From Sarea resinae (taxonomy: Eukaryota): a stretch of DNA of 64,000 bases. Positions 1,621 through 39,863 of the stretch are shown here, one piece after another. Position 1 is the stretch's first letter. Each line of letters begins with the position of its first letter. The stretch is taken from positions 124,001 to 188,000 of the forward strand of contig JAPEUD010000034.1 of the NCBI GenBank assembly GCA_026026165.1, given 5' to 3'. The position numbers and the translations under genes were made by a program. The notes under the pieces were generated by a model. That model ran no database searches and had not been told where the DNA came from. It worked only from the letters and a program-made list of their open reading frames with translations.

Positions 1621-2201
1621 TTCGAGAGTATGGTTGTGCGGGCCTGAGCCTGAGACGTTCGACGATAAACGTTCGTATTTGAGATCTCGCTACTAAGGAT
1701 TTCATTTCGATAGATGAGGTAATTCGGCATGCCAAAGGCTATCACATAGGTAGGTAACAAACGACTCAGGCTATATATAACTTGGCTTCTACATATACTC
1801 GATATACCATTATGCACATATCTTAGTCGGGAAAGATTCAGAAGTCAGACAGCCAGCCAGCTAGCTACGAACAAAGCCCGAAATACCGAGAAGCATTTGC
1901 GATACTATGTTCCCAGATCTAAGCGGTTCATGCGAGATCCGTATAGTCGTGAGGTCCGAGAGCTGTGCTAAGTTCTGTACCCATTACATCGAAAGGATAT
2001 AGATACGATGCGAAAAGCCTGCGAGGACCTAGACGGTGCTGACCTTGTTCTTGACTTTACTCCCGTCCCGTCCCCGTCCCCGCCACCCTGCGTGAACGGC
2101 TAAAAAGTGTAATATACCGAAAATAGTAGTATAGAGCCTCACAGAGTCTCCAGACTGACATCCGACTAAACCCACCAAGAGCATCTCAGAGGGGATACCA
2201 T

Positions 2202-5200
2202 TCAGATCCCCAAATCACCAACCCACGCCTCCCTGATCCCGAGTCCCAGAGTCATTGCCACACCCCTCGCGACGCTTCCAGCCACGATCCTCCAGCCCTG
2301 GCCTTCCGTACCGACCAGGATCTCGTGATCGGGGATTCCCTGCAACCTGCGCCCCTCGAGCACAGTCAGAAAGCGATCTTGCTCGTAATGCAGCGTGCGG
2401 CCTGAATTGTTACAGCCCTGGCGCATGCAGCTGCCTAGCGTAGGCGTGATCTTGTTACCGTCGTAGCGGCCCCAGGCGCGAGAAACTTTGAATTTGCGGT
2501 GCCTGAACGAGGCCTCATGTCTTTCGAGCAGTGGCCGAGGCAGGACCTTACGGTCAAAGGCGGTGTTGAGGGCTGACGTGGGCGGATACTTGGGAATGAG
2601 CCCGATGAGTGCAGTGTTTTGCGGTGTCAGCGTCTTAGGGTTAGGGGGCCGGTGATCCGGGTGGGAGAGGTAGAATTGGCTGCCAGAATCCGCATCGAAA
2701 GGAGAGAAGTCGGGGAATGGTGGTGGCAGATCCTGGATGGCTTCTTTGAGCGTAATGTGGTTAAAGGGGGTGGAGCCGAATTTCCGCATGCCAACTTGTT
2801 TACGGTTGGCGAGGCGTGATATGCATCTGCTGGGAGTGCCCTTTGGGTGACTATGTGATGGGGCTGGTGGAGGAGGTAGCTTACATCCTGGAGCGGCGAT
2901 AGAGATGTAGAGTCGGGACTGATTTGCTGCGCCGCCAAAGGACCAAGCATCAAGATTAAATTGCTGCACTTGGTATCCCATGCCTAAAAGGCAGCAGACT
3001 AGTTGCGCAAACACGTCCTCGCCCGGAACATGGCTCTTGCCAGCCAAGCAGAGGAGGTTCTCAATCAGAGCGTATTTGGGGCGGAAAAAGTCGATACAAG
3101 CGGCGACAAGAGCAACGAGGGCACGTCCTTCTTGAGCATTAACAGTCATTGTGTAGCGGTTAGCATTGGAAAAGGGTTGGCTAGGGGGTTCTGCTATTAT
3201 CATTTCCACTTCTCCTGCCTTCGGATATCCGGGCTTTCCAGCCATGCAACAAGCTAGAAAGTTGCTGATGTCGCCGAGATAAAACTGGGCCCCCGAATAC
3301 TTTGGTTTCGCATTCGCTCGTTGCGTATGAATCTCTGCTGATGATACGTCGACACACCACTGGACAGAAATGGCTCCCCCTTCTTCCAGTCCGCGACCAA
3401 AACTACCTCCGCAGCCCCACAGGTCTAGTGCTTTAAGTGGCGGGCGAGATGGCTGAGCTGTAGGATCAAAGCTCTCAACAAGCCCGGTAGGCATAGCCTC
3501 AAGTGGTTCGAGGCGTTGTGTCGAATTCTGATATCGATATGAGATATAGTATGCGTCTCCAGTGCCATTGCGATTGTATGGTGCGGGGATCTTTCTATCA
3601 CCTTGGTCTTTGGCCGAATAGAAGCGAACGAGGCATTTTCTTTCCACAAATTCAGCCGGAACCCAGAAAGTTGTCTCAGTGTAGAGAAGCTCATTCGGGG
3701 CAGCGTTGCTGCGGAGTTCTTGTGCAGGTAAAAGCCGTCTGCACAATACTTTCCTCTTCTTCTGGTTGAGCTCTAGTATCTCGACCGGATTGAGCGTATC
3801 AGAGCCTTTGTTTCCCACTAACACTGTATCCCCAACGCAATATGTCTCCTTCACTCTCTGAAAATCAGATTTGCATCCTCGATGCACACATTCAAAGTCG
3901 GGCGTCTCTAAATTCGCGAAGGCATGGTCGGTAGTTCGAAAAGTCCGACATACAAAGTATGATCCATTCGACTGAGAAGGGCAGGTAGAGATAGAGAACG
4001 ACACTGGAACTTTGCACATGACTCTTTCTATTTCGAGCTTTTCGGTGCACTGATCAGATAGAAAAAGCTCGTTCGGGAAAGGATAGAGCATTTTCCCGCA
4101 CGTTGTGTCGGCAGGCTTATATAGCCATAATACATGCAGAAATTGTCTCCCACGCTGATTAGTCAAAACATCTTGAACATAGGCAAACCATTGCTCTAAG
4201 TCTCTTCCGCCACCGACGTCAAGGCAAAGCACAACATCCCCTGCTTTGACCGGCTCTAGAAGACTGTCTGCACAGAGAGCCCTTTCTGCAATTGTCCAGT
4301 CGAATGACATTGGCACTGATGCTGGCGGCTCTAGAGACGTTTTGACGTAATTGCAGCGAGGAAGGATGCCCTGGAGGAAGCTTCCCCAAGATAAATGCTC
4401 GAAGCAGTCCTTGACAAAGGGCGTGACAACAATCGAGCTGACTCCTGGTTTGAGCTTTATTGCTGCATCCAATAATTCTGGGTGGAACTCCCCCCAAATC
4501 GAATGCCCTTCTAGTTCCTTTTCAATGTCTGTGGCCTCCTTCCACAAAAACCCTGGATTAGCTGTCAAGAAACTCCGGAAGTCGGTCCCAGAGAATCGCT
4601 GACACCATTTCTGAAATTCTTGATTATGCCTATGCAGAAATTTAGCCCATGCGTAGAATTTATCCTTGAAATCTACTAGCTTTGCGGAGCGATGGCTGGT
4701 CAGGAAGGAGGTGAAGTATTTTGAGAACGTAGCAATCCTGAGGAAGTGATTATAATAGTAGCTGTACTCTAAAAGCGGCCACTTCAGATTGTACCAGATG
4801 TTCCTGTCCTCGTTGAACGTTGATCGAATCCAAATTTGATCTCGAGAATGGTGTGCTTCGCCAATAGATAGTTGACTAAAAGGTACCCTCTGGACGTAAT
4901 AATTTCGTTTCGCATCACTGAGGACTCCATCAAAGTAATAGACCCGGTGTCCACCGAGTGTGCGGAGATTCTGCAGCGATGCAAGTTCAGCACTTGTGCT
5001 AGATAACGCCTCAACAGAAGAATCTCCTTTCCTCTTGTCCGACACCGGGCAGAGCCTATATATGCTGAAATGATGTAGCTCTATCTGCTCGAAGCTATCT
5101 TCAAAGTGGCCAGACAAAAAGTCGCCCTGCGGGATCTAAATCATGTAAATTAGCGATCGAATAAACTCGACAGGCAAACATCAGGTTACCTCGAGTTTCA

Positions 5201-6464
5201 GCAGGGCCGATTGCTCCGACATGATTGTAGATGGGGGCTTCCATCCAAGATACTCTGATTTGGGGCCTTTCAAGCGCGGCATGATACAGTCGATTTGTAG
5301 ATGCCTCTTCGGCCCTGAGAGCTCCCCCTGCTGACTCACAGTTGCCGTCGCTCTGACTTTAGCGTGGCGGGATTCTTGCACAGTATCGTCACTTCCATTG
5401 CCGTCTAGCGTAGCATACTGGTCAAATGCCCGTTTGCGAGGGTTCTTTTTCGAAGGTCTTGGAAATGATACGCCAATACAATCTTCTTGTGGGGCACTTA
5501 ACTCGTCCAACTCATCTTCCGACTGTATACCAGTGAGGTCAATCACCTCGGATTGTGTGCTCACTCTTTGTGGCGTTTCATTGCGTTGCGTAGAACCCAA
5601 TTTATCCGGCTCCTCCGAGGATTTCGTATCATCCACAGTGAGATCGATCACCTCAGGACCAAGCACCTCTGGACCCTCTATAGCTTGTACATCTTCCTCA
5701 TCCCGTTCTAGTATGCCGACCTCGTCATCTGAATGTGGCACATTGTTGAGTCCAAGGTTGGTCGGATGAAGGCTAAGCTCATTACTGCAGCTTCCAATAG
5801 CTGACGATTCATGCCACTGCAATAAATCAATTTCCTCTTCGACATGTTCTGAGTCGTTCGTTGAAGTATTGAGAAACCAAGGACCACCTGCAATACGCTC
5901 GTTTTCCTGAGCTTGTGGTTCATTGCATGGCACGCGATCGCCTTCTAACGACTTTGCGGCCTGGACTGAGAGCTCAGTCAGTCTAAGACCATCCACAGGG
6001 AGGCCGCTTCGATAGGCTGGTGGTTTACTCGAGTAAGATATGTCATCGAGTTTCCTGTCCGACAAGTCTGCGGCCTCGTCTGGGAAGATGATCCACCTAG
6101 GGCCATGAACGAATCCTTGGTCTTCACTGCGGAGCTGTTCGTCTTCATGGGCTGGCACTTCGTTCAGGTCGGCGCAGATATGCTCGGAATCGAGGATTTC
6201 AGGATCTTCTCTGCTGTGAGTCGAGGTCAAGCCTCTAGGATCGAGCTCTTCCGGGCTCGATCTGTCGCTGTCTGAAGGGAAAGGCTCTTCGGGGGGTTCA
6301 ATTTCAAGGGTTTGGAGAGCTGCCAAATCGTTGATCCCTCCTCCTTGTTTGGTGTCAGGATCAATATCTTCGCCCCATGCATCCTGACATAGAACTTCGT
6401 CCAGCTCATTCCACAACACAAAATCATTGCCGAAGCCAAACGGGACCTGGCATTGATCGTCCAT
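2202..6464 (-). CDS. dim-2: DIM-2/Masc2-type DNA (cytosine-5) methyltransferase homologue with two BAH domains, about 1402 aa; catalytic motifs altered
   Basis: Exons 5190..6464 and 2202..5135 are joined in frame by intron 5136..5189 (GTAACC...GCTAAT...TTTAG). It has an acidic N-terminus, BAH-like segments (WFAYVQ...VLWLYKPADTTC...NELFLSD; PNELLYT), the IPAPYNRNGTGDAYYI block and an MTase fold (FGRGLEEGG, RPKYALIENL, LHYEQDRFLTVLEGRRLQGIPDHE). Confidence 0.9.
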
Positions 6465-8183
6465 TCTCTGATACCGAGGGTTTCCGCTTCCCTACGTTAG
6501 GACGTCCACTGCAGAAGCAGAAGCCGGAGTTCACTACATGGCGAGGATCCACATATATAAGCCCATTTTCGACTGGATTCGGGCTAGGTAAACAACGGAC
6601 ACGTAGCTAAGCAACGCAGAAAGCGAGAATACAGACGGTTGCCCGTTGCACAGAACAGGGATAGTAAAGTAGTAATCACGCATATCCTGCAAGTTCCAGG
6701 TTGCCGATTCCATACCGAAACGAGCTTGGTGGGGAGTTGCCAATCCATGTAATTGACGAATTACCTAGAGCTAGGCCAAGCCCACCAGGTGTTGGGTGCA
6801 ATCGCAATAACTTAAAAAAAACGATGTCAAGCTCTGAAGTCAAATATCCATTCCAGAGCAAGCAACGACAATCAAGCCAGGTGCTTTCGTGTCCAGCGTA
6901 GCGACCGGGGTTGGAGATCGCAGCACTGGACATGATGAAGTAAAGCCTGGTTCATGTTCTGTGGATTTTGGAAGATTGAGCGACCTCCCGAGCACGCAAG
7001 CCTGTCAGGGCTTACCCGCCGTAGCAGGAACGAGTGATTGCACTCATCATTCCCTCTTTGGCGAGAATTGAGAGCTTGCAGTTGGCTTGTCCCCAAGTAT
7101 GGCGCTATAGCTTGTGGTGGTCACCGCGGCATGGCGCGGATTGAGCGACTGTCAAATGGAAGTCGCCAAAGCCGACCAGCACCTCAATGTTGGGTAACCA
7201 ATGCTGCCATGGGCTGCAGAGTAAATTCTATGGTGTGTGCTCCTGCCTACCCATAAGCACGGACCGTCGCAACCGTGGGCGTGATAGTAATTATCGGTTT
7301 CTATCATCGTTGAGTTTCTAGTTGCTACCTTGGAGGAGTGCAGGAGCCAGCCCAATGTTGTCGTGGTTCTGAAGCGAGCTTATATACGCCTGTAGGAACA
7401 CTTCGCCGCGGGAATGGTGTCCTGACCTTTTTCGTACGGCTGCCTTCAAGCAGGCGGAAGCGGATACCAGAAGACATCCTATTCCTCTTCCAGATTATCT
7501 GATTGATGTACGTGAAAACGCTCGCCGCTTTCGGACCTCAACTCTGATCTGTCTGTCTCGCGTCTGCGAAAGCATGGCCGTCACGCGCCGGCGCACAGGA
7601 CAGGAAAGCGGATATGATCAAAGCGTCTAGGGCTAGGAGCATGTAGTGAAGGGGTAGAGTGTAATGCCTTGCTAAGAGAAGATCGCGATGCGAGATGACA
7701 GCAATGAGAAGAGAGGTGAGAGGCGGTGCTAGATAGGCCTTCCGCCACTGACTTGAGACGTCATCGAAGCCCTGGATCGTTCGACTTTGAATCCTGTATA
7801 TCGATATCTTCATGCACTGGTTGGAATGCGTTCGGCTGTCTTCATGGTATGGCATTTGTAACTATCGGGCTGGTATACATGGTGATTGACCCTTGGAAGG
7901 GACTTGGAGGAAGCAATTCTGGTGTGTGTTCTCACTGGGATAGATGGGCTCCCATCATGATGATCATCATCATCTTCTGAAAAGTGACACCAGACACTCC
8001 ATATCCATCCATCCGTCTCGTTTCCTATGACCCACAATTTGTAGCCAAAATTCATCTGAGGTCGTGCATCTGAGACTACACTGCTTCTGTTGGTTCGGAA
8101 ATCTCGTTTCTCTCAGCGCCCTCTTCAAACGGCTATATACCTGTTTCCTGGAAGTGCCCTAGAACGCAACAGCTATCATAACT

Positions 8184-21783: not shown

Positions 21784-23388
21784 ATGGACCCGGCGAACAA
21801 GAGCGTTGATGTCTTGAGACAGCAGATAGCAGCCACGGAGCGAGACCTCAGCGCACTAAAGGAGGAGCTTGCGTGCGCCGAAGCCAACGCTGCTCGTAAT
21901 CGCGGGGATGACGCAGAAGAAGACCTGAAGACCCCTCACGAGGAGCACGAGAGACCATGGAGATGGCCCTTACGGGCAGAAGAATACCAAAGATACGGCC
22001 GCCAATTGATCCTCCCGGAAGTCGGTCTGCAAGGTCAGCGCCTCACTCACTCCTTTCTGCAGACCCAGCGCTAAAGTCATGTATCATGGCAGGCCAGCTA
22101 AAACTGAAGGCGTCGTCCGTACTGATCGTCGGAGTTGGGGGCCTTGGATGTCCTGCCGCCATGTATCTTGCCGGAGCTGGCGTGGGAAGACTCGGGCTGG
22201 TGGATGGCGATACGGTCGAGATTTCCAACCTGCATCGTCAGATTCTTCATAGCACGCCGAGGGTGGGGATGCGAAAGGTAGATAGTGCCATCACCGGCTT
22301 ACGAGCGTACGTCTCTGCTCTTGCAATGACCTCTTTCATTCCAATTGACTCGTCGCTCAAGTCTCAATCCAACTGTGCAATACGTTGCCCACCGAGAGCA
22401 CCTCACCCCCCAAACCGCCGTTGCCATCGTCTCCAAGTACGACGTGATCCTTGACTGCACCGACCATCCCACCTCGCGCTATCTCATCTCCGACGCGGCA
22501 GTGCTTTTGGGGAAACCCCTCGTGTCAGCATCCGCCCTTAAAGCGGAGGGCCAACTCATGGTTCTCAACACTCCGCCCACAGCCCCCGGTGAAAATCACG
22601 GAGGGCCTTGCTACCGTTGCGTCTTCCCCAAACCGCCACCTCCCGACAGCGTCCTCAGTTGCGGTGATGGCGGTATTCTCGGGCCCGTCGTAGGCACAAT
22701 GGGGGTGCTTCAAGCAATCGAAACTATCAAAATCCTCACCTGCAATACTCCCAACCCCTCGAACAACCCCTCCACAAACGCCTCCAGCCCGTCGCCTCCA
22801 ACGCTCCTGCTCTTCTCCGCCTACACATCCCCCCAGTTTCGTAGCGTCCGCCTCCGCTCTCGCAGACCGACATGCTTAGCCTGCGGGCCCCACGCAACCA
22901 TCACCGCGGAATCACTGACCTCGGGCTCTCTGGACTACATCCAATTCTGCGGCGTCGCCAACCCGGCCGCCTTACTCTCGGCCGACGAGCGGATCAGCGC
23001 GCGTGATTTTTCCCGAACAATCGAGCGGGCCGCGCACGACACCGAAGCAAACAAGCTTGTGCTTGTCGACGTGCGCGAGAAGGTCCAGTTCGACATCTGC
23101 CATCTCCCCGATAGCATCAACATCCCCTTCTCCCGTATCCAGGCCATGCAGACGGCCACCCAGAGCTCGTCCGCAGACGAGCCAGAGTCGCAGCAATTCC
23201 TCGCTCCCATCCTTGGCCCCCAGTTGCCCATCTACGTGGTCTGCCGTCTCGGCAACGACTCCCAGGTCGTCGTCAAGGTCCTGAAGGCCGCGGGACTCGA
23301 TGAGGGCGGGAAGCGGTATATTGGTGATATCCGCGGCGGCTTGAAGGCATGGAAGGAGGAGGTCGAGCCGGAGTGGCCTGAATATTGA
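21784..23388 (+). CDS. UBA4: Adenylyltransferase/sulfurtransferase Uba4/MOCS3 (ThiF/MoeB plus rhodanese)
   Basis: [44 protein letters not shown], rhodanese CRLGNDS. Introns 22034..22092 and 22307..22361. Confidence 0.95.
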
Positions 23389-36159: not shown

Positions 36160-38196
36160 ATGAAAGAGCGTCATGGTTCAAGGCAGCCAACGGCCCTGCC
36201 TAATGACACCCAGAAGACGCTCAAATCTCACGCTGAACCCAGTTCGAGTGGACTTCTTTCACCTCCAAGGCACCAACCAGATGACCATGACACCAGCGAT
36301 CCCGAGACCGAGGACGACGATGTATTCGATGCTTACAATCTGGAAGGGATGAGCAAGGAAGAATTTGCCGCCATGGTCGCAGCCGCTCCGCCAGAAGAGA
36401 GACTGCAGGTCAAGGCCCTCTCACCAGACCTCACCTCTGATGCTACGTCTGAGTCTGCAGACGAAGAAGACCCAGAGTCACCAATCTACCTGTCTTCTTC
36501 CTCAGAGGATGAAGAGGATGCCGAAGATGAGACGCTTCCCTCCGTCGATGCCTCTATGAGCTTGCCACCGGCTTCGGAGCCCCAAAGATCCGCCAATGGC
36601 CTCGTCGACTACTACATCGAGAAGCATCCCTTCATGGGTGATGCTCTAAATACGCATACGGTCTCAGATCGAAGGGCATTCACGAGAGACATCTACGATT
36701 ACGCTCGGGCTCGAAATATGACTAGTAGTCAGGCGTCGGAAAAGGTCGAGGAGGCTCGGGAACAGTTCGTCGAGAGGAGGGTCATGGCTCTAGTGCAGGC
36801 TGGCCGAGCCCCTGATCAAACGCTCGGAGATGACGGAACCAATTGGATTCGAGAAGAGACGCCGTTGGGGAGCGAAATAGATGATTCGGATATGGTATTA
36901 GCGCTGGCAGAAGGAACAGAGGAAAGGCCTCTTGCTAGGGCCATCCGTGGCATAGCAGAGCAGAAAGGGCGGGAGCTCGCGCAGCATAGCGACTCTGGAC
37001 ACGTCGAAGAGAAGCGTTCAAAGCGAGACACTCATGATACCACCCCGACAACGAACAGTCATCCGAGCAACTTAGGCGGTGGATTAGGAGGAGCAAGCAA
37101 TCCAAATACGGATACACACAAGTCAAAAAGGAAGCGAAAGCGGAAGTCTCTCGCTGATGGGCATGCTGCGTCCAATACAACCCAATCTCAACTGGAAATG
37201 CCAGAGGGAGCAAATCTGCATATAAGGAAGAGACAACGTAAGCTCGAGAAGAAACTTTCTGGATCACACTATTCCACCGCAGACAGCACTCAGAAAACGT
37301 CTTCGACATCCGAGTCTCCGTCACCCAAGACCCCGGCACCAATATCACATAGTTTACTGACAACGGAACCAAATAAGCGCACCTCTACCACCAAATCCCA
37401 AAGCACAAAACCCACCATCGCAAAGGTCACGCCAGCTTCTCAAAGTAAGAAAAAGAAGAAGCGAAAAAACAGATCGACCGCTTTGAATATTGAGAAAGCT
37501 CCAATAGCGTCACCGCTCTCAGAGTCCAAGAACGGTGGAGCTGAAGTATCCTCCCAGCCAACTTCTCGCTTCTCTTCTGCGCTTAATGGAACGGCCGTGA
37601 GCGAATCATTAGGTGAAGATCGCCGGAAAGCAAAAATGGAGAGACGCAAGAAGAAATCGGAGCTTGTGGACAAAGAGATGCCGGTTGATCTGTCATCGGA
37701 TATATTAACTAGGTCTGCGAGGAAAAGGGAGAGAAGAAAAGTGAGAAAGAGCGAAGGGGAAATGAAGACCAGTGGATCGATCGAGGGCAGCCCACATGAC
37801 AAGAGCCCAGGAGCGAAGGAAATCAAAACGCTCACGCCTGTCGAAAACGAGCACCATGAGAATTCAAAAAGTCATACAGAGCGATCGCTAAAGGATGAGC
37901 AAATGCTGGTGGACGGGTCCGAGCATAATCACTCTCTAGGAAATGACATTGATATGCCAGATGCCCCTCACACATCTCGTCCAAGCGAAGCCCACTCGGG
38001 GACGCTGATGAAGAGTCCTAGCGAGAAGGGTTTAACTCCGCCGAACATAAGGCCAAGGAAATTCGCAGAATTTGTCTCGAGTCCTGGTATTGGAGGCAAT
38101 CCTGATGAGACTGTCTCGGACATGGAACAGGCTGCTCAACCGACAACACCGCAGGAGCAGCAGGATTTTCACATTCCGAGGATTCACCAGGTCTAG
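36160..38196 (+). CDS. Lys/Ser-rich nuclear-like hypothetical protein (678 aa); probably the N-terminal part of the glycosylase locus
   Basis: ATG ORF with a small helical block (HPFM..DRRAFTRDIYDYARARNM) and many basic NLS-like runs; its last 88 nt overlap the open -1 frame of the next ORF. Confidence 0.75.
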   Translation: MKERHGSRQPTALPNDTQKTLKSHAEPSSSGLLSPPRHQPDDHDTSDPETEDDDVFDAYNLEGMSKEEFAAMVAAAPPEERLQVKALSPDLTSDATSESADEEDPESPIYLSSSSEDEEDAEDETLPSVDASMSLPPASEPQRSANGLVDYYIEKHPFMGDALNTHTVSDRRAFTRDIYDYARARNMTSSQASEKVEEAREQFVERRVMALVQAGRAPDQTLGDDGTNWIREETPLGSEIDDSDMVLALAEGTEERPLARAIRGIAEQKGRELAQHSDSGHVEEKRSKRDTHDTTPTTNSHPSNLGGGLGGASNPNTDTHKSKRKRKRKSLADGHAASNTTQSQLEMPEGANLHIRKRQRKLEKKLSGSHYSTADSTQKTSSTSESPSPKTPAPISHSLLTTEPNKRTSTTKSQSTKPTIAKVTPASQSKKKKKRKNRSTALNIEKAPIASPLSESKNGGAEVSSQPTSRFSSALNGTAVSESLGEDRRKAKMERRKKKSELVDKEMPVDLSSDILTRSARKRERRKVRKSEGEMKTSGSIEGSPHDKSPGAKEIKTLTPVENEHHENSKSHTERSLKDEQMLVDGSEHNHSLGNDIDMPDAPHTSRPSEAHSGTLMKSPSEKGLTPPNIRPRKFAEFVSSPGIGGNPDETVSDMEQAAQPTTPQEQQDFHIPRIHQV

Positions 38197-39863
38197 CCGG
38201 TGAGGAGGTAGTGAACGAAAGTATTCCTGATACTATAGCCCCGGAAGACATTGCAAAAGACCCCACAGCAGAGAGGGGTCTAGGTTATCGAAACAGAAAT
38301 TATTTACCAGCGTTGGAGATGAAAATTTCAGACTCGGCATGTTCTTCCAAAGACGAGATGCCACCACTAGAAGTTTACCCCGAGATCGTCAAAGAAGAGC
38401 TCTATACACATGATTCGTCGGCCGATAAGCAGCTTCCTCAATCCCAGGTCCTCATCGACAACTCTTCGCGCAAGACAGAATTGTCGGAAGCATTATACGG
38501 TTCCGATTCCGATAGCCCACTGTCAGATTTACCGCCATCGTCACCTACGTGGGAGGAAGATAGATCTGGTAGCGACATCATCGAGCTAACCTCTCGCAAA
38601 GAATTCCCAAGTGCTATCGAGACATGCACACGACCTCGCACGCGGTCGCAAACCGGCCAGGATAATATCACACTACCCCGAGAAATAAGACCCAAGACTG
38701 CCAAGAAGTCTCCTTACTTTGACACCCCATCCCCAGCGAAGAAAAAGCCATCCCTTGAAAAGAGAAGGCGGCCCCCACGCGGCACTGTCTCGTGCATCCC
38801 ATTCCCACCACTCTCCTCCCCTAGCTTCGGCCTCATCCAGGAGAAACTTGCTCATGACCCATTCAAGCTTCTCGTAGCCGTCACCTTTCTCAACCGCACA
38901 AAAGGCGCACAAGCTATCCCGGTTTTCTACCAACTTATGGGCGCCTACCCGACGCCCGCCGCTCTTGCCGGTGCCGACGAAAAAGACGTCGCGAGCCTGA
39001 TTCGTTCCCTCGGACTTCAAAACACGCGGGCGAGACGCTATATCCAACTCGCCAAAGCCTGGGTCGCCGAACCTGCTGCATCTGATCGTCGATATCGCAA
39101 GCTCCATTACCCTACCGCGGGCATGGGCAGAGATATCAAGCCCACGGAGATCCTCACAGATGACGACTCTCGCGACGGAGCGTGGGAAATCGCACACCTT
39201 CCTACTGCCGGTCCTTATGCGCTCGACAGCTGGCGTATATTCTGCAGGGACAAATTGCGTGGGGTGGCGGATGGTTGGAATGGCGAGGGGGTGACGGACC
39301 CGGCATTCGAGCCCGAGTGGAGACGAGTGGCGCCAAAGGATAAGGAGCTGCGGGCTTTCTTGAGATGGATGTGGCTGAGGCTTGGATGGGAGTGGGATCC
39401 GAAGACTGGTGAGAGGAAGATTGCCGGGGACGAGTTGATGACTCAGGCGCGAGTTGGGGGGATCGTTTGGGAGGAGGTCGAGGGTGCAGACGGGGAAGAG
39501 GTCAAAGAGACGGTCAATGGCGAGAGAAACGGCTCGGAAGTGGGGTCCGATGTTGAGGTCAAAGGGGAGGCTGAAGATGGAGGGCCTGCCGATGAGTCTC
39601 ATAGCACGGTCAAGGAAGAGGGTGGCCTGAGCGAAGAGATGGTCGACGTCGATAACGAAGACGAAAGCGAGGACGGAGGGGGAGACGCCGACGAAAATTC
39701 CGAGGAAGGCATGCAGTACGAGACTGCCCCCACCGCCGGCGCGACCACGACCGCGACCAACAGCTTAGCGGCGCCTTCTCCCTCCCCTCCATCCCCTCGC
39801 CCAGATCAAGACGCCGACGGGAAAGAAGCTCTTGTGAATTTCTCTGCGGCGTTGGCGCTCTAA
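38109..39863 (+). CDS. MBD4-like HhH-GPD DNA glycosylase (G:T/G:U mismatch family); coordinates give the open frame, true start unresolved
   Basis: FGLIQEKLAHDPFKLLVAVTFLNRTKG, LGLQNTRA and HhH LPTAGPYALDSWRIF with the catalytic Asp, then PKDKELRAFLRW. Frame is open from 38109; first ATG at 38319. Confidence 0.88.
   Translation, partial: DCLGHGTGCSTDNTAGAAGFSHSEDSPGLAGEEVVNESIPDTIAPEDIAKDPTAERGLGYRNRNYLPALEMKISDSACSSKDEMPPLEVYPEIVKEELYTHDSSADKQLPQSQVLIDNSSRKTELSEALYGSDSDSPLSDLPPSSPTWEEDRSGSDIIELTSRKEFPSAIETCTRPRTRSQTGQDNITLPREIRPKTAKKSPYFDTPSPAKKKPSLEKRRRPPRGTVSCIPFPPLSSPSFGLIQEKLAHDPFKLLVAVTFLNRTKGAQAIPVFYQLMGAYPTPAALAGADEKDVASLIRSLGLQNTRARRYIQLAKAWVAEPAASDRRYRKLHYPTAGMGRDIKPTEILTDDDSRDGAWEIAHLPTAGPYALDSWRIFCRDKLRGVADGWNGEGVTDPAFEPEWRRVAPKDKELRAFLRWMWLRLGWEWDPKTGERKIAGDELMTQARVGGIVWEEVEGADGEEVKETVNGERNGSEVGSDVEVKGEAEDGGPADESHSTVKEEGGLSEEMVDVDNEDESEDGGGDADENSEEGMQYETAPTAGATTTATNSLAAPSPSPPSPRPDQDADGKEALVNFSAALAL

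Follow-up and report, generated by a model that had tools for sequence, protein, structure and literature searches.

A candidate pseudo-methyltransferase of the DIM-2 family beside an intact DIM-2 in Sarea resinae

In Neurospora crassa, DIM-2 combines, in this order, an N-terminal HP1-binding peptide, an RFTS region, the two BAH domains BAH1 and BAH2, and a methyltransferase (MTase) domain with a target-recognition domain (TRD) (structures 9BAQ and 9BAP; PMC11315935). The flipped base is held by S924, P925, C926, E966, R1013 and R1015, of which C926 becomes covalently linked to it (PMC11315935). Outside the fungi, DNMT3L, which carries a histone-reading module, is a paralogue of an active DNA methyltransferase but is itself inactive (PMC13297926), and Arabidopsis DRM3 is a catalytically mutated paralogue required by the active DRM2, its fold being kept and its key residues changed (PMC2965745). 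Extra DIM-2 copies without methyltransferase function occur in Zymoseptoria tritici, where they were inactivated through repeat-induced point mutation (RIP) after amplification (PMC8016269). Here we describe a DIM-2-family gene in a 64,000-nucleotide (nt) stretch of DNA from the fungus Sarea resinae (contig JAPEUD010000034.1, positions 124,001 to 188,000; "the window"). It lies on the minus strand at window positions 2202-6464 and consists of two exons of 425 and 977 codons, which specify 1402 amino acids once spliced. We propose that it is a catalytically dead paralogue beside an intact DIM-2, and that it has probably been retained for a non-catalytic role.

The locus is a strongly diverged DIM-2 paralogue whose architecture is still that of DIM-2: the N-terminal peptide is followed by an RFTS-like region (DUF7893), by BAH1 and BAH2, and by a C5 DNA methyltransferase fold. 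Pfam recognises DUF7893 (E 9.6e-22), BAH in two stretches (E 7.1e-11) and, weakly, DNA_methylase (E 5.1e-13) in exon 2. Among solved structures, Neurospora DIM2 matches best (9BAQ/9BAP, E 1.2e-128; residues 50-254 and 312-975 of the query are aligned), DNMT1 structures being much weaker at about 1e-27. A word-indexed protein search (23 matches) and an exhaustive HMMER search (1671 matches at E up to 1e-3, of which 150 were listed) both retrieved DIM-2 proteins from many classes of ascomycetes; the top matches are DIM-2-named proteins at 41-45% identity, and none of those listed exceeds 45%. For exon 1, the Pfam scan found no domain and the search against solved structures gave no match at E up to 10; the approximately 40 residues at its end can be aligned to the N-terminal peptide that is conserved among DIM-2 proteins.

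Besides the order of its parts, the window protein has in common with Neurospora DIM-2 most residues of the H3K9me3 cage. It differs in having Ser for C926 and Gln for R1013, altered motifs I, VI and X, no equivalent of W571, a Cys at the position of L134, and no C-terminal tail after the MTase fold. Two features of the inactive cofactors DNMT3L and DRM3 recur here: an active paralogue is present in the same annotation of a metagenome-assembled genome (MAG, a metagenome bin), and catalytic residues are lost with the fold retained. The parallels have limits. DNMT3L belongs to the DNMT3 family and not to DNMT1/DIM-2, and it is short and has lost whole motifs, whereas the window protein keeps a full-length fold; DRM3 belongs to the plant DRM family and to RNA-directed methylation. 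Unlike the Z. tritici copies, the gene shows neither RIP-like skew nor stops.

The state of the active site was assessed in a MAFFT alignment of 169 sequences, the window protein and 168 other DIM-2-family proteins. We scored 14 positions that we take to be catalytic, namely GxG of motif I, GxPC of motif IV, ENV of motif VI, QxRxR of motif VIII and GNxV of motif X; the S-adenosylmethionine (SAM) loop of motif I is defined as FxGxG. The window protein departs at 8 of the 14. Among the others, 155 depart at none, six at one and two at two, and five are truncated before motif X, so that two is the largest number of real substitutions in any of them. In motif IV, the catalytic Cys (Cys in 167/168 others; Neurospora C926) is replaced by Ser at residue 652, encoded by AGC at 3180-3182, and Gly649, invariant in all 168 others, has become Glu. 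Motif VIII has Ala for Gln at residue 737 (Gln in 166/168 others) and Gln for Arg at residue 739, the equivalent of R1013 (Arg in 167/168 others); the equivalent of R1015 is kept. Both residues altered in motif X are nearly invariant among the aligned others (Gly in 163/163, Asn in 162/163), and the changes in motifs I and VI are given in Table 1. The motif II acid, D596, is still present. In a HMMER alignment, the Neurospora residues S924 and P925 each correspond to P, C926 to S, E966 to E, R1013 to Q and R1015 to R. Compared with what an active PF00145 enzyme carries, the window protein lacks the Pro-Cys of motif IV, the first SAM-loop Gly of motif I, one of the two motif VIII arginines and the Gly-Asn of motif X, and it retains the Glu of motif VI. 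The initial annotation had reported changes in motifs IV, I, VIII and X, and all of them are borne out by the 169-sequence alignment, including the AGC codon; with eight key positions altered, the active site is dismantled. Since the nucleophilic Cys is replaced by Ser, one of the two clamp Arg residues by Gln, a SAM-loop Gly by Cys and the Gly-Asn of motif X by Ala-Gly, the protein very probably does not methylate cytosine.

Key changes also turned up singly elsewhere in the family: P0160 has a single one, Cys to Trp; P0086 has Arg to Gln at the R1013 equivalent; and P0069 combines Pro to Ser with Asn to Asp. These may be errors or further inactive members.

A query with the Geoglossum DIM-2 retrieved a second family member from the same MAG annotation, P0314 ("hypothetical protein M1819_005769 [Sarea resinae]", 1147 amino acids), encoded on a different contig. 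It shares family and architecture with the window protein, at 39% identity over nearly the full length, and all of its catalytic motifs are intact (DLCCGGGNFGRGLEEGG, SAGSPCQGFS, ENV, SSQSRSRLF and VGNSVAR); it also keeps the BAH1 Trp and a canonical ICVDVP motif of the HP1-binding type. The initial annotation, which had taken the window gene for the organism's DIM-2, had itself proposed a search for a second, intact dim-2. That search succeeded, and the assumption of a sole DIM-2 is thereby overturned: because intact P0314 stands in the same annotation, the window gene is to be regarded as a dead paralogue. The analogy to DNMT3L becomes more apt, since the dead paralogue sits beside a live one.

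Outside the intron, the window gene has no stop or frameshift in 1402 codons. How far this is compatible with neutrality was gauged by introducing random mutations (kappa 2, 2000 runs) into the MTase coding part, counting stops only, so that frameshifts would lower the number of open frames still further. At 36% amino-acid change, the value chosen to match the loss of 18 of 52 invariant columns in the MTase lobes (see below), none of the 2000 runs stayed free of stops, the mean being seven stops; at 20% and 10% change, 33 and 266 runs did so. As no neutral run stayed open at the observed loss, the frame appears to have been kept open while catalytic residues were being replaced. RIP-like dinucleotide skew is absent as well, with TpA/ApT at 0.60, (CpA+TpG)/(ApC+GpT) at 1.41 and GC at 0.507, all close to the values of the whole window.

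With five outgroups, relative-rate counts in the MTase core gave 57-64 residues unique to the window copy vs 24-32 unique to the intact copy, and outside the core 76-110 vs 54-71. The window copy has therefore evolved 1.8-2.7 times faster than P0314 inside the core and 1.3-1.9 times faster outside, about 2-fold overall, which is not the many-fold excess expected of long neutrality. We further took, from an alignment of 17 sequences, the columns invariant in the other 16. The window protein breaks 13/35 and 5/17 of these in the MTase lobes (18/52), but 8/57 elsewhere (N-terminus 0/7, DUF7893 2/6, linker 1/4, BAH1 4/20, BAH2 0/9, TRD 1/11); no other sequence breaks more than 6/28 in any one part. 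Since conserved residues were also lost outside the core, constraint seems to have altered on the whole protein and not on the active site alone. Branch lengths for the two partitions were estimated on one topology for 49 rows (the window protein and every third of those 144 of the 169 rows that are filled to 85% or more in both partitions). For the non-catalytic part, the end branch of the window protein measures 0.87, compared with a median of 0.60 and a maximum of 1.05 among the others; for the MTase part it measures 1.06, the others having a median of 0.40 and a maximum of 0.81. A long open frame and a rate only about 2-fold that of P0314 fit poorly with simple early decay and in this respect favour the initial interpretation.

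Most residues of the H3K9me3 cage survive. For the RFTS cage of Neurospora DIM2, formed by Y185, W261 and Y273 (PMC11315935), the window protein offers the family-typical W102 and W114 and a tentative F15 for Y185; W361-K362-E363 (PMC11315935) is kept as W198-K199-E200, likewise family-typical. The BAH1 cage comprises W571, W581, W609 and Y611, plus D615 (PMC11315935); the last four correspond to W316, W337, Y339 and D343, all of them family-typical. Double mutation of W261 and W581 abolished peptide binding (PMC11315935), and both residues have equivalents here. The stretch LQIDCIMPRL in exon 1 stands in the register of the Neurospora segment I130-T-V-D-L134...L139, in which L134 and L139 are the residues altered in the binding-defective L134A/L139A mutants (PMC11315935). 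Judged by these residues, docking on heterochromatin is plausible but may be weakened.

Several observations weigh against a retained, working protein. The first concern its expression. The long frames on the minus strand run from stop to stop over 5181-6491 and 2202-5135, with the first ATG at 6464, and the 54-nt intron between the exons is predicted from the sequence and from the way in which conserved segments succeed one another on its two sides: among 96 aligned N-terminal segments, the end of exon 1 (…LQIDCIMPRLKGPKSEY…SEQSALLKLE) matches the conserved DIM-2 peptide, and the conserved FSIY segment begins just after the start of exon 2. Fungal 5' splice sites usually have G at position +5, a consensus from which the donor GTAACC (5184-5189) departs; the two Uba4 introns in the same window have the donors GTCAGC and GTACGT. 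Because the intron contains an in-frame TGA, the 1402-residue frame is open only after splicing, and the initial description of an uninterrupted open reading frame has to be withdrawn in favour of two frames separated by 54 nt. If the donor were poorly used, the TGA at 5181-5183 would terminate translation once exon 1 had been read. The gene's protein is missing from the public protein sets searched, though that of the neighbouring Uba4 gene is there; it seems to have remained unannotated or to have been dropped. The second group concerns the readers. The W571 equivalent of BAH1, a Trp in 157 of the 168 others, is lost in a loop three residues shorter; in the HP1-type motif, Cys stands in place of L134 and Ile in place of the Pro that follows. 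The initial statement that both BAH domains are kept therefore holds for the two stretches found by Pfam but needs qualifying for the BAH1 loop. Third, losses are not significantly concentrated in the core when all 169 sequences are aligned (17/54 there vs 8/47 in the rest, Fisher p 0.11). Fourth, no orthologue sharing the dead state was found, the best match being 45% identical among the 150 listed of 1671; six metagenome loci are 32-34% identical to the window protein. Finally, P0314 comes from a metagenome bin, where a binning error is possible.

The strongest alternative is that the gene is a redundant DIM-2 duplicate in decay, unused and not yet struck by a stop or frameshift. A protein with the longest end branch of the tree (2.51, against a median of 0.7), with conserved residues lost in all of its parts, a deleted BAH1 cage Trp, a weak splice donor and no entry in the protein sets searched would look much like this, and intact P0314 makes the gene dispensable for methylation. 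On the other hand, 1402 codons free of stops and frameshifts beyond one intron, the failure of all 2000 neutral runs (mean of seven stops) to stay open at the observed loss, a rate only about twice that of the intact copy, and the many family-typical stretches and reader residues retained are hard to reconcile with disuse. We regard decay as a serious minority explanation. A variant of it, in which the gene worked for a long time as a non-enzyme and died only very recently, would look the same in these data as retention for a non-catalytic role.

Much less probable, in our estimate, is that the window gene is the only DIM-2 of the species and that the contig carrying P0314 was binned in error and belongs to another fungus. 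The metagenomic origin of P0314 would allow for it, and the best matches of the window protein are ordinary DIM-2 orthologues of neighbouring classes. Against this, P0314 carries the MAG locus-tag prefix M1819, which is also that of the window's own Uba4 match: the Uba4 frame at 22330-23385 equals MAG protein P0170 (M1819_003643) except at the edge of the raw frame, where five residues stem from intron sequence. The next-best Uba4 match is 61% identical, so the lineage is an isolated one. Sarea has been placed with the Xylonomycetes (PMC9157775), and in a tree of 35 rows built with a quick posterior mean site frequency (PMSF) analysis P0314 falls where expected, in a seven-row group with Xylona heveae, Leotiomycete and Sordariomycete rows, although with weak support (Shimodaira-Hasegawa-like approximate likelihood ratio test, SH-aLRT, 91). 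It is the window copy, not P0314, that forms an unplaced long branch. A tree with both Sarea copies as sisters has a log-likelihood 3.55 higher and is not rejected (p of the approximately unbiased test 0.617), so that a lineage-specific duplication is allowed. Shared rare residues show no excess between the two copies: they number 11, which ranks about fourth, vs 17 for the long-branch Acrodontium row.

Still less likely is that the protein remains an enzyme, using the Ser as nucleophile, a relocated Cys, or a different substrate. Some proteins called pseudoenzymes do have relocated catalytic residues (PMC10211241), and the window protein does retain the overall fold, the acid D596, Glu and Asn in motif VI and the second Arg in motif VIII. 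In DIM2, however, it is the Cys thiolate that acts as the nucleophile and is linked covalently to the base (PMC11315935); the catalytic loop of the window protein, IIAEPPSQPFSNANRY, contains no Cys at all, and the R1013 equivalent, the SAM-loop Gly and the Gly-Asn of motif X are gone as well. That the whole picture is a sequencing or assembly artefact is hardly credible: although the stretch is found in only one run (X1), probably the assembly's own source, the eight separate key changes stand among many others, and the Logan contigs of that run, a separate assembly of its reads with a word depth of about 340-370, have no other letter and no indel over 2000-6700, positions 3180-3182 included, as the initial annotation had anticipated in arguing against a sequencing error. 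Runs X2 and X3 of the same study gave no coverage of the stretch at 80% likeness, and no RNA run is listed as containing it. The two Logan contigs of X1 break and overlap at 3541-3570, and a tiny contig there has a loose end of 19 letters; it resembles a transposase library adapter, which we take to be an assembly detail and not biology.

The coordinates of the gene and its parts are collected in Table 1, together with a neighbouring gene. The two EVIDLT motifs in exon 1 resemble SUMO-interaction motifs, and other DIM-2 proteins have comparable acidic, I/V-rich motifs in their tails (alignment A1). Among 20 frames scanned of the 71 listed window frames of at least 150 amino acids, mostly the longer ones, no second PF00145 domain was found. 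For a long frame on the plus strand at 38109-39860, Pfam reports a DNA-glycosylase domain of the HhH-GPD type (E 1.8e-8); this seems to be an ordinary gene for base-excision repair, and we saw no link to the DIM-2 finding.

Table 1. Positions, within the 64,000-nt window, of the DIM-2-family gene, its domains and motifs, and the Uba4-type gene.
Feature	Position	Strand	Description
Exon 1	5190..6464	-	425 codons from the ATG at 6464; acidic (21% D+E)
Two EVIDLT motifs	5637-5654 and 5532-5549	-	acidic residues come after each; in disordered exon 1
HP1-type peptide	5271..5300	-	LQIDCIMPRL; register of Neurospora I130-T-V-D-L134...L139 and of P0314 ICVDVP
Intron (inferred)	5136..5189	-	54 nt, phase 0; GTAACC...GCTAAT...TTTAG (GT..AG); in-frame TGA inside
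Exon 2 (P0001)	2202..5135	-	977 codons; stop at 2202-2204; RFTS-like region, BAH1, BAH2, MTase fold
RFTS-like region	4356..5108	-	Pfam DUF7893 at 4482-4745
BAH1	3876..4250	-	most cage equivalents kept; loop 3 residues shorter; CNCG loop shortened
BAH2	3501..3848	-	best Pfam BAH stretch; breaks 0/9 columns invariant in the other 16 sequences
C5-methyltransferase fold	2205..3455	-	TRD at 2421-2855; catalytic motifs degenerate
Motif I	3405..3425	-	DLWGCGG vs family DLFCGGG; Gly575 to Cys (Gly in 167/168 others)
Motif IV	3168..3200	-	IIAEPPSQPFS vs ISAGSPCQGFS
Motif VI	3054..3062	-	ENL; Val694 to Leu (ENV in 168/168 others); E692 and N693 kept
Motif VIII	2913..2927	-	ANQSR vs QSRSR
Motif X	2271..2282	-	AGSV vs GNSV; Gly952 to Ala, Asn953 to Gly
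Uba4/MOCS3-type gene	21784-23385	+	three exons; ThiF and rhodanese domains

Taken together, the initial interpretation as a pseudo-methyltransferase stands as regards the dismantled active site, the reality of the changes and the open frame, and falls as regards the status as sole DIM-2 and the intron-free reading frame. According to our proposal, a duplicate of DIM-2 would have lost more than half of its key catalytic residues and yet kept its 4.2-kb frame open; because both happened together, selection most likely preserved the gene for a role other than catalysis. Our best guess is that the retained cage residues would bind H3K9me3/HP1 heterochromatin, and the dead copy could then serve the active DIM-2 as a cofactor or scaffold, or compete with it, in the manner of DNMT3L and DRM3 and their partners. 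By this analogy, the protein might tentatively be seen as a fungal counterpart of DNMT3L and DRM3 that would tune, target or antagonise active DIM-2 while docked on H3K9me3/HP1 heterochromatin, a possibility to which we give distinctly less weight than to retention as such.

No dead member of the DIM-2 family was found described in the literature searched (including PMC13297926, PMC7862722 and PMC12366691). In mammals and plants, active DNA methyltransferases are steered by inactive paralogues (DNMT3L and DRM3, respectively); for the fungal DIM-2 pathway the same literature yielded none. Should the gene prove to be only a slowly dying duplicate, it would provide a clean case of a large multi-domain enzyme gene decaying without RIP. 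If the reading as a fungal counterpart of DNMT3L and DRM3 is true, this would be the first 5-methylcytosine pseudo-methyltransferase of the fungal DIM-2/DNMT1 lineage, within the literature searched. A dead DIM-2 with its histone readers retained, next to a live copy, would also represent a natural separation-of-function allele, which could show the roles of RFTS, BAH and HP1 binding apart from catalysis.

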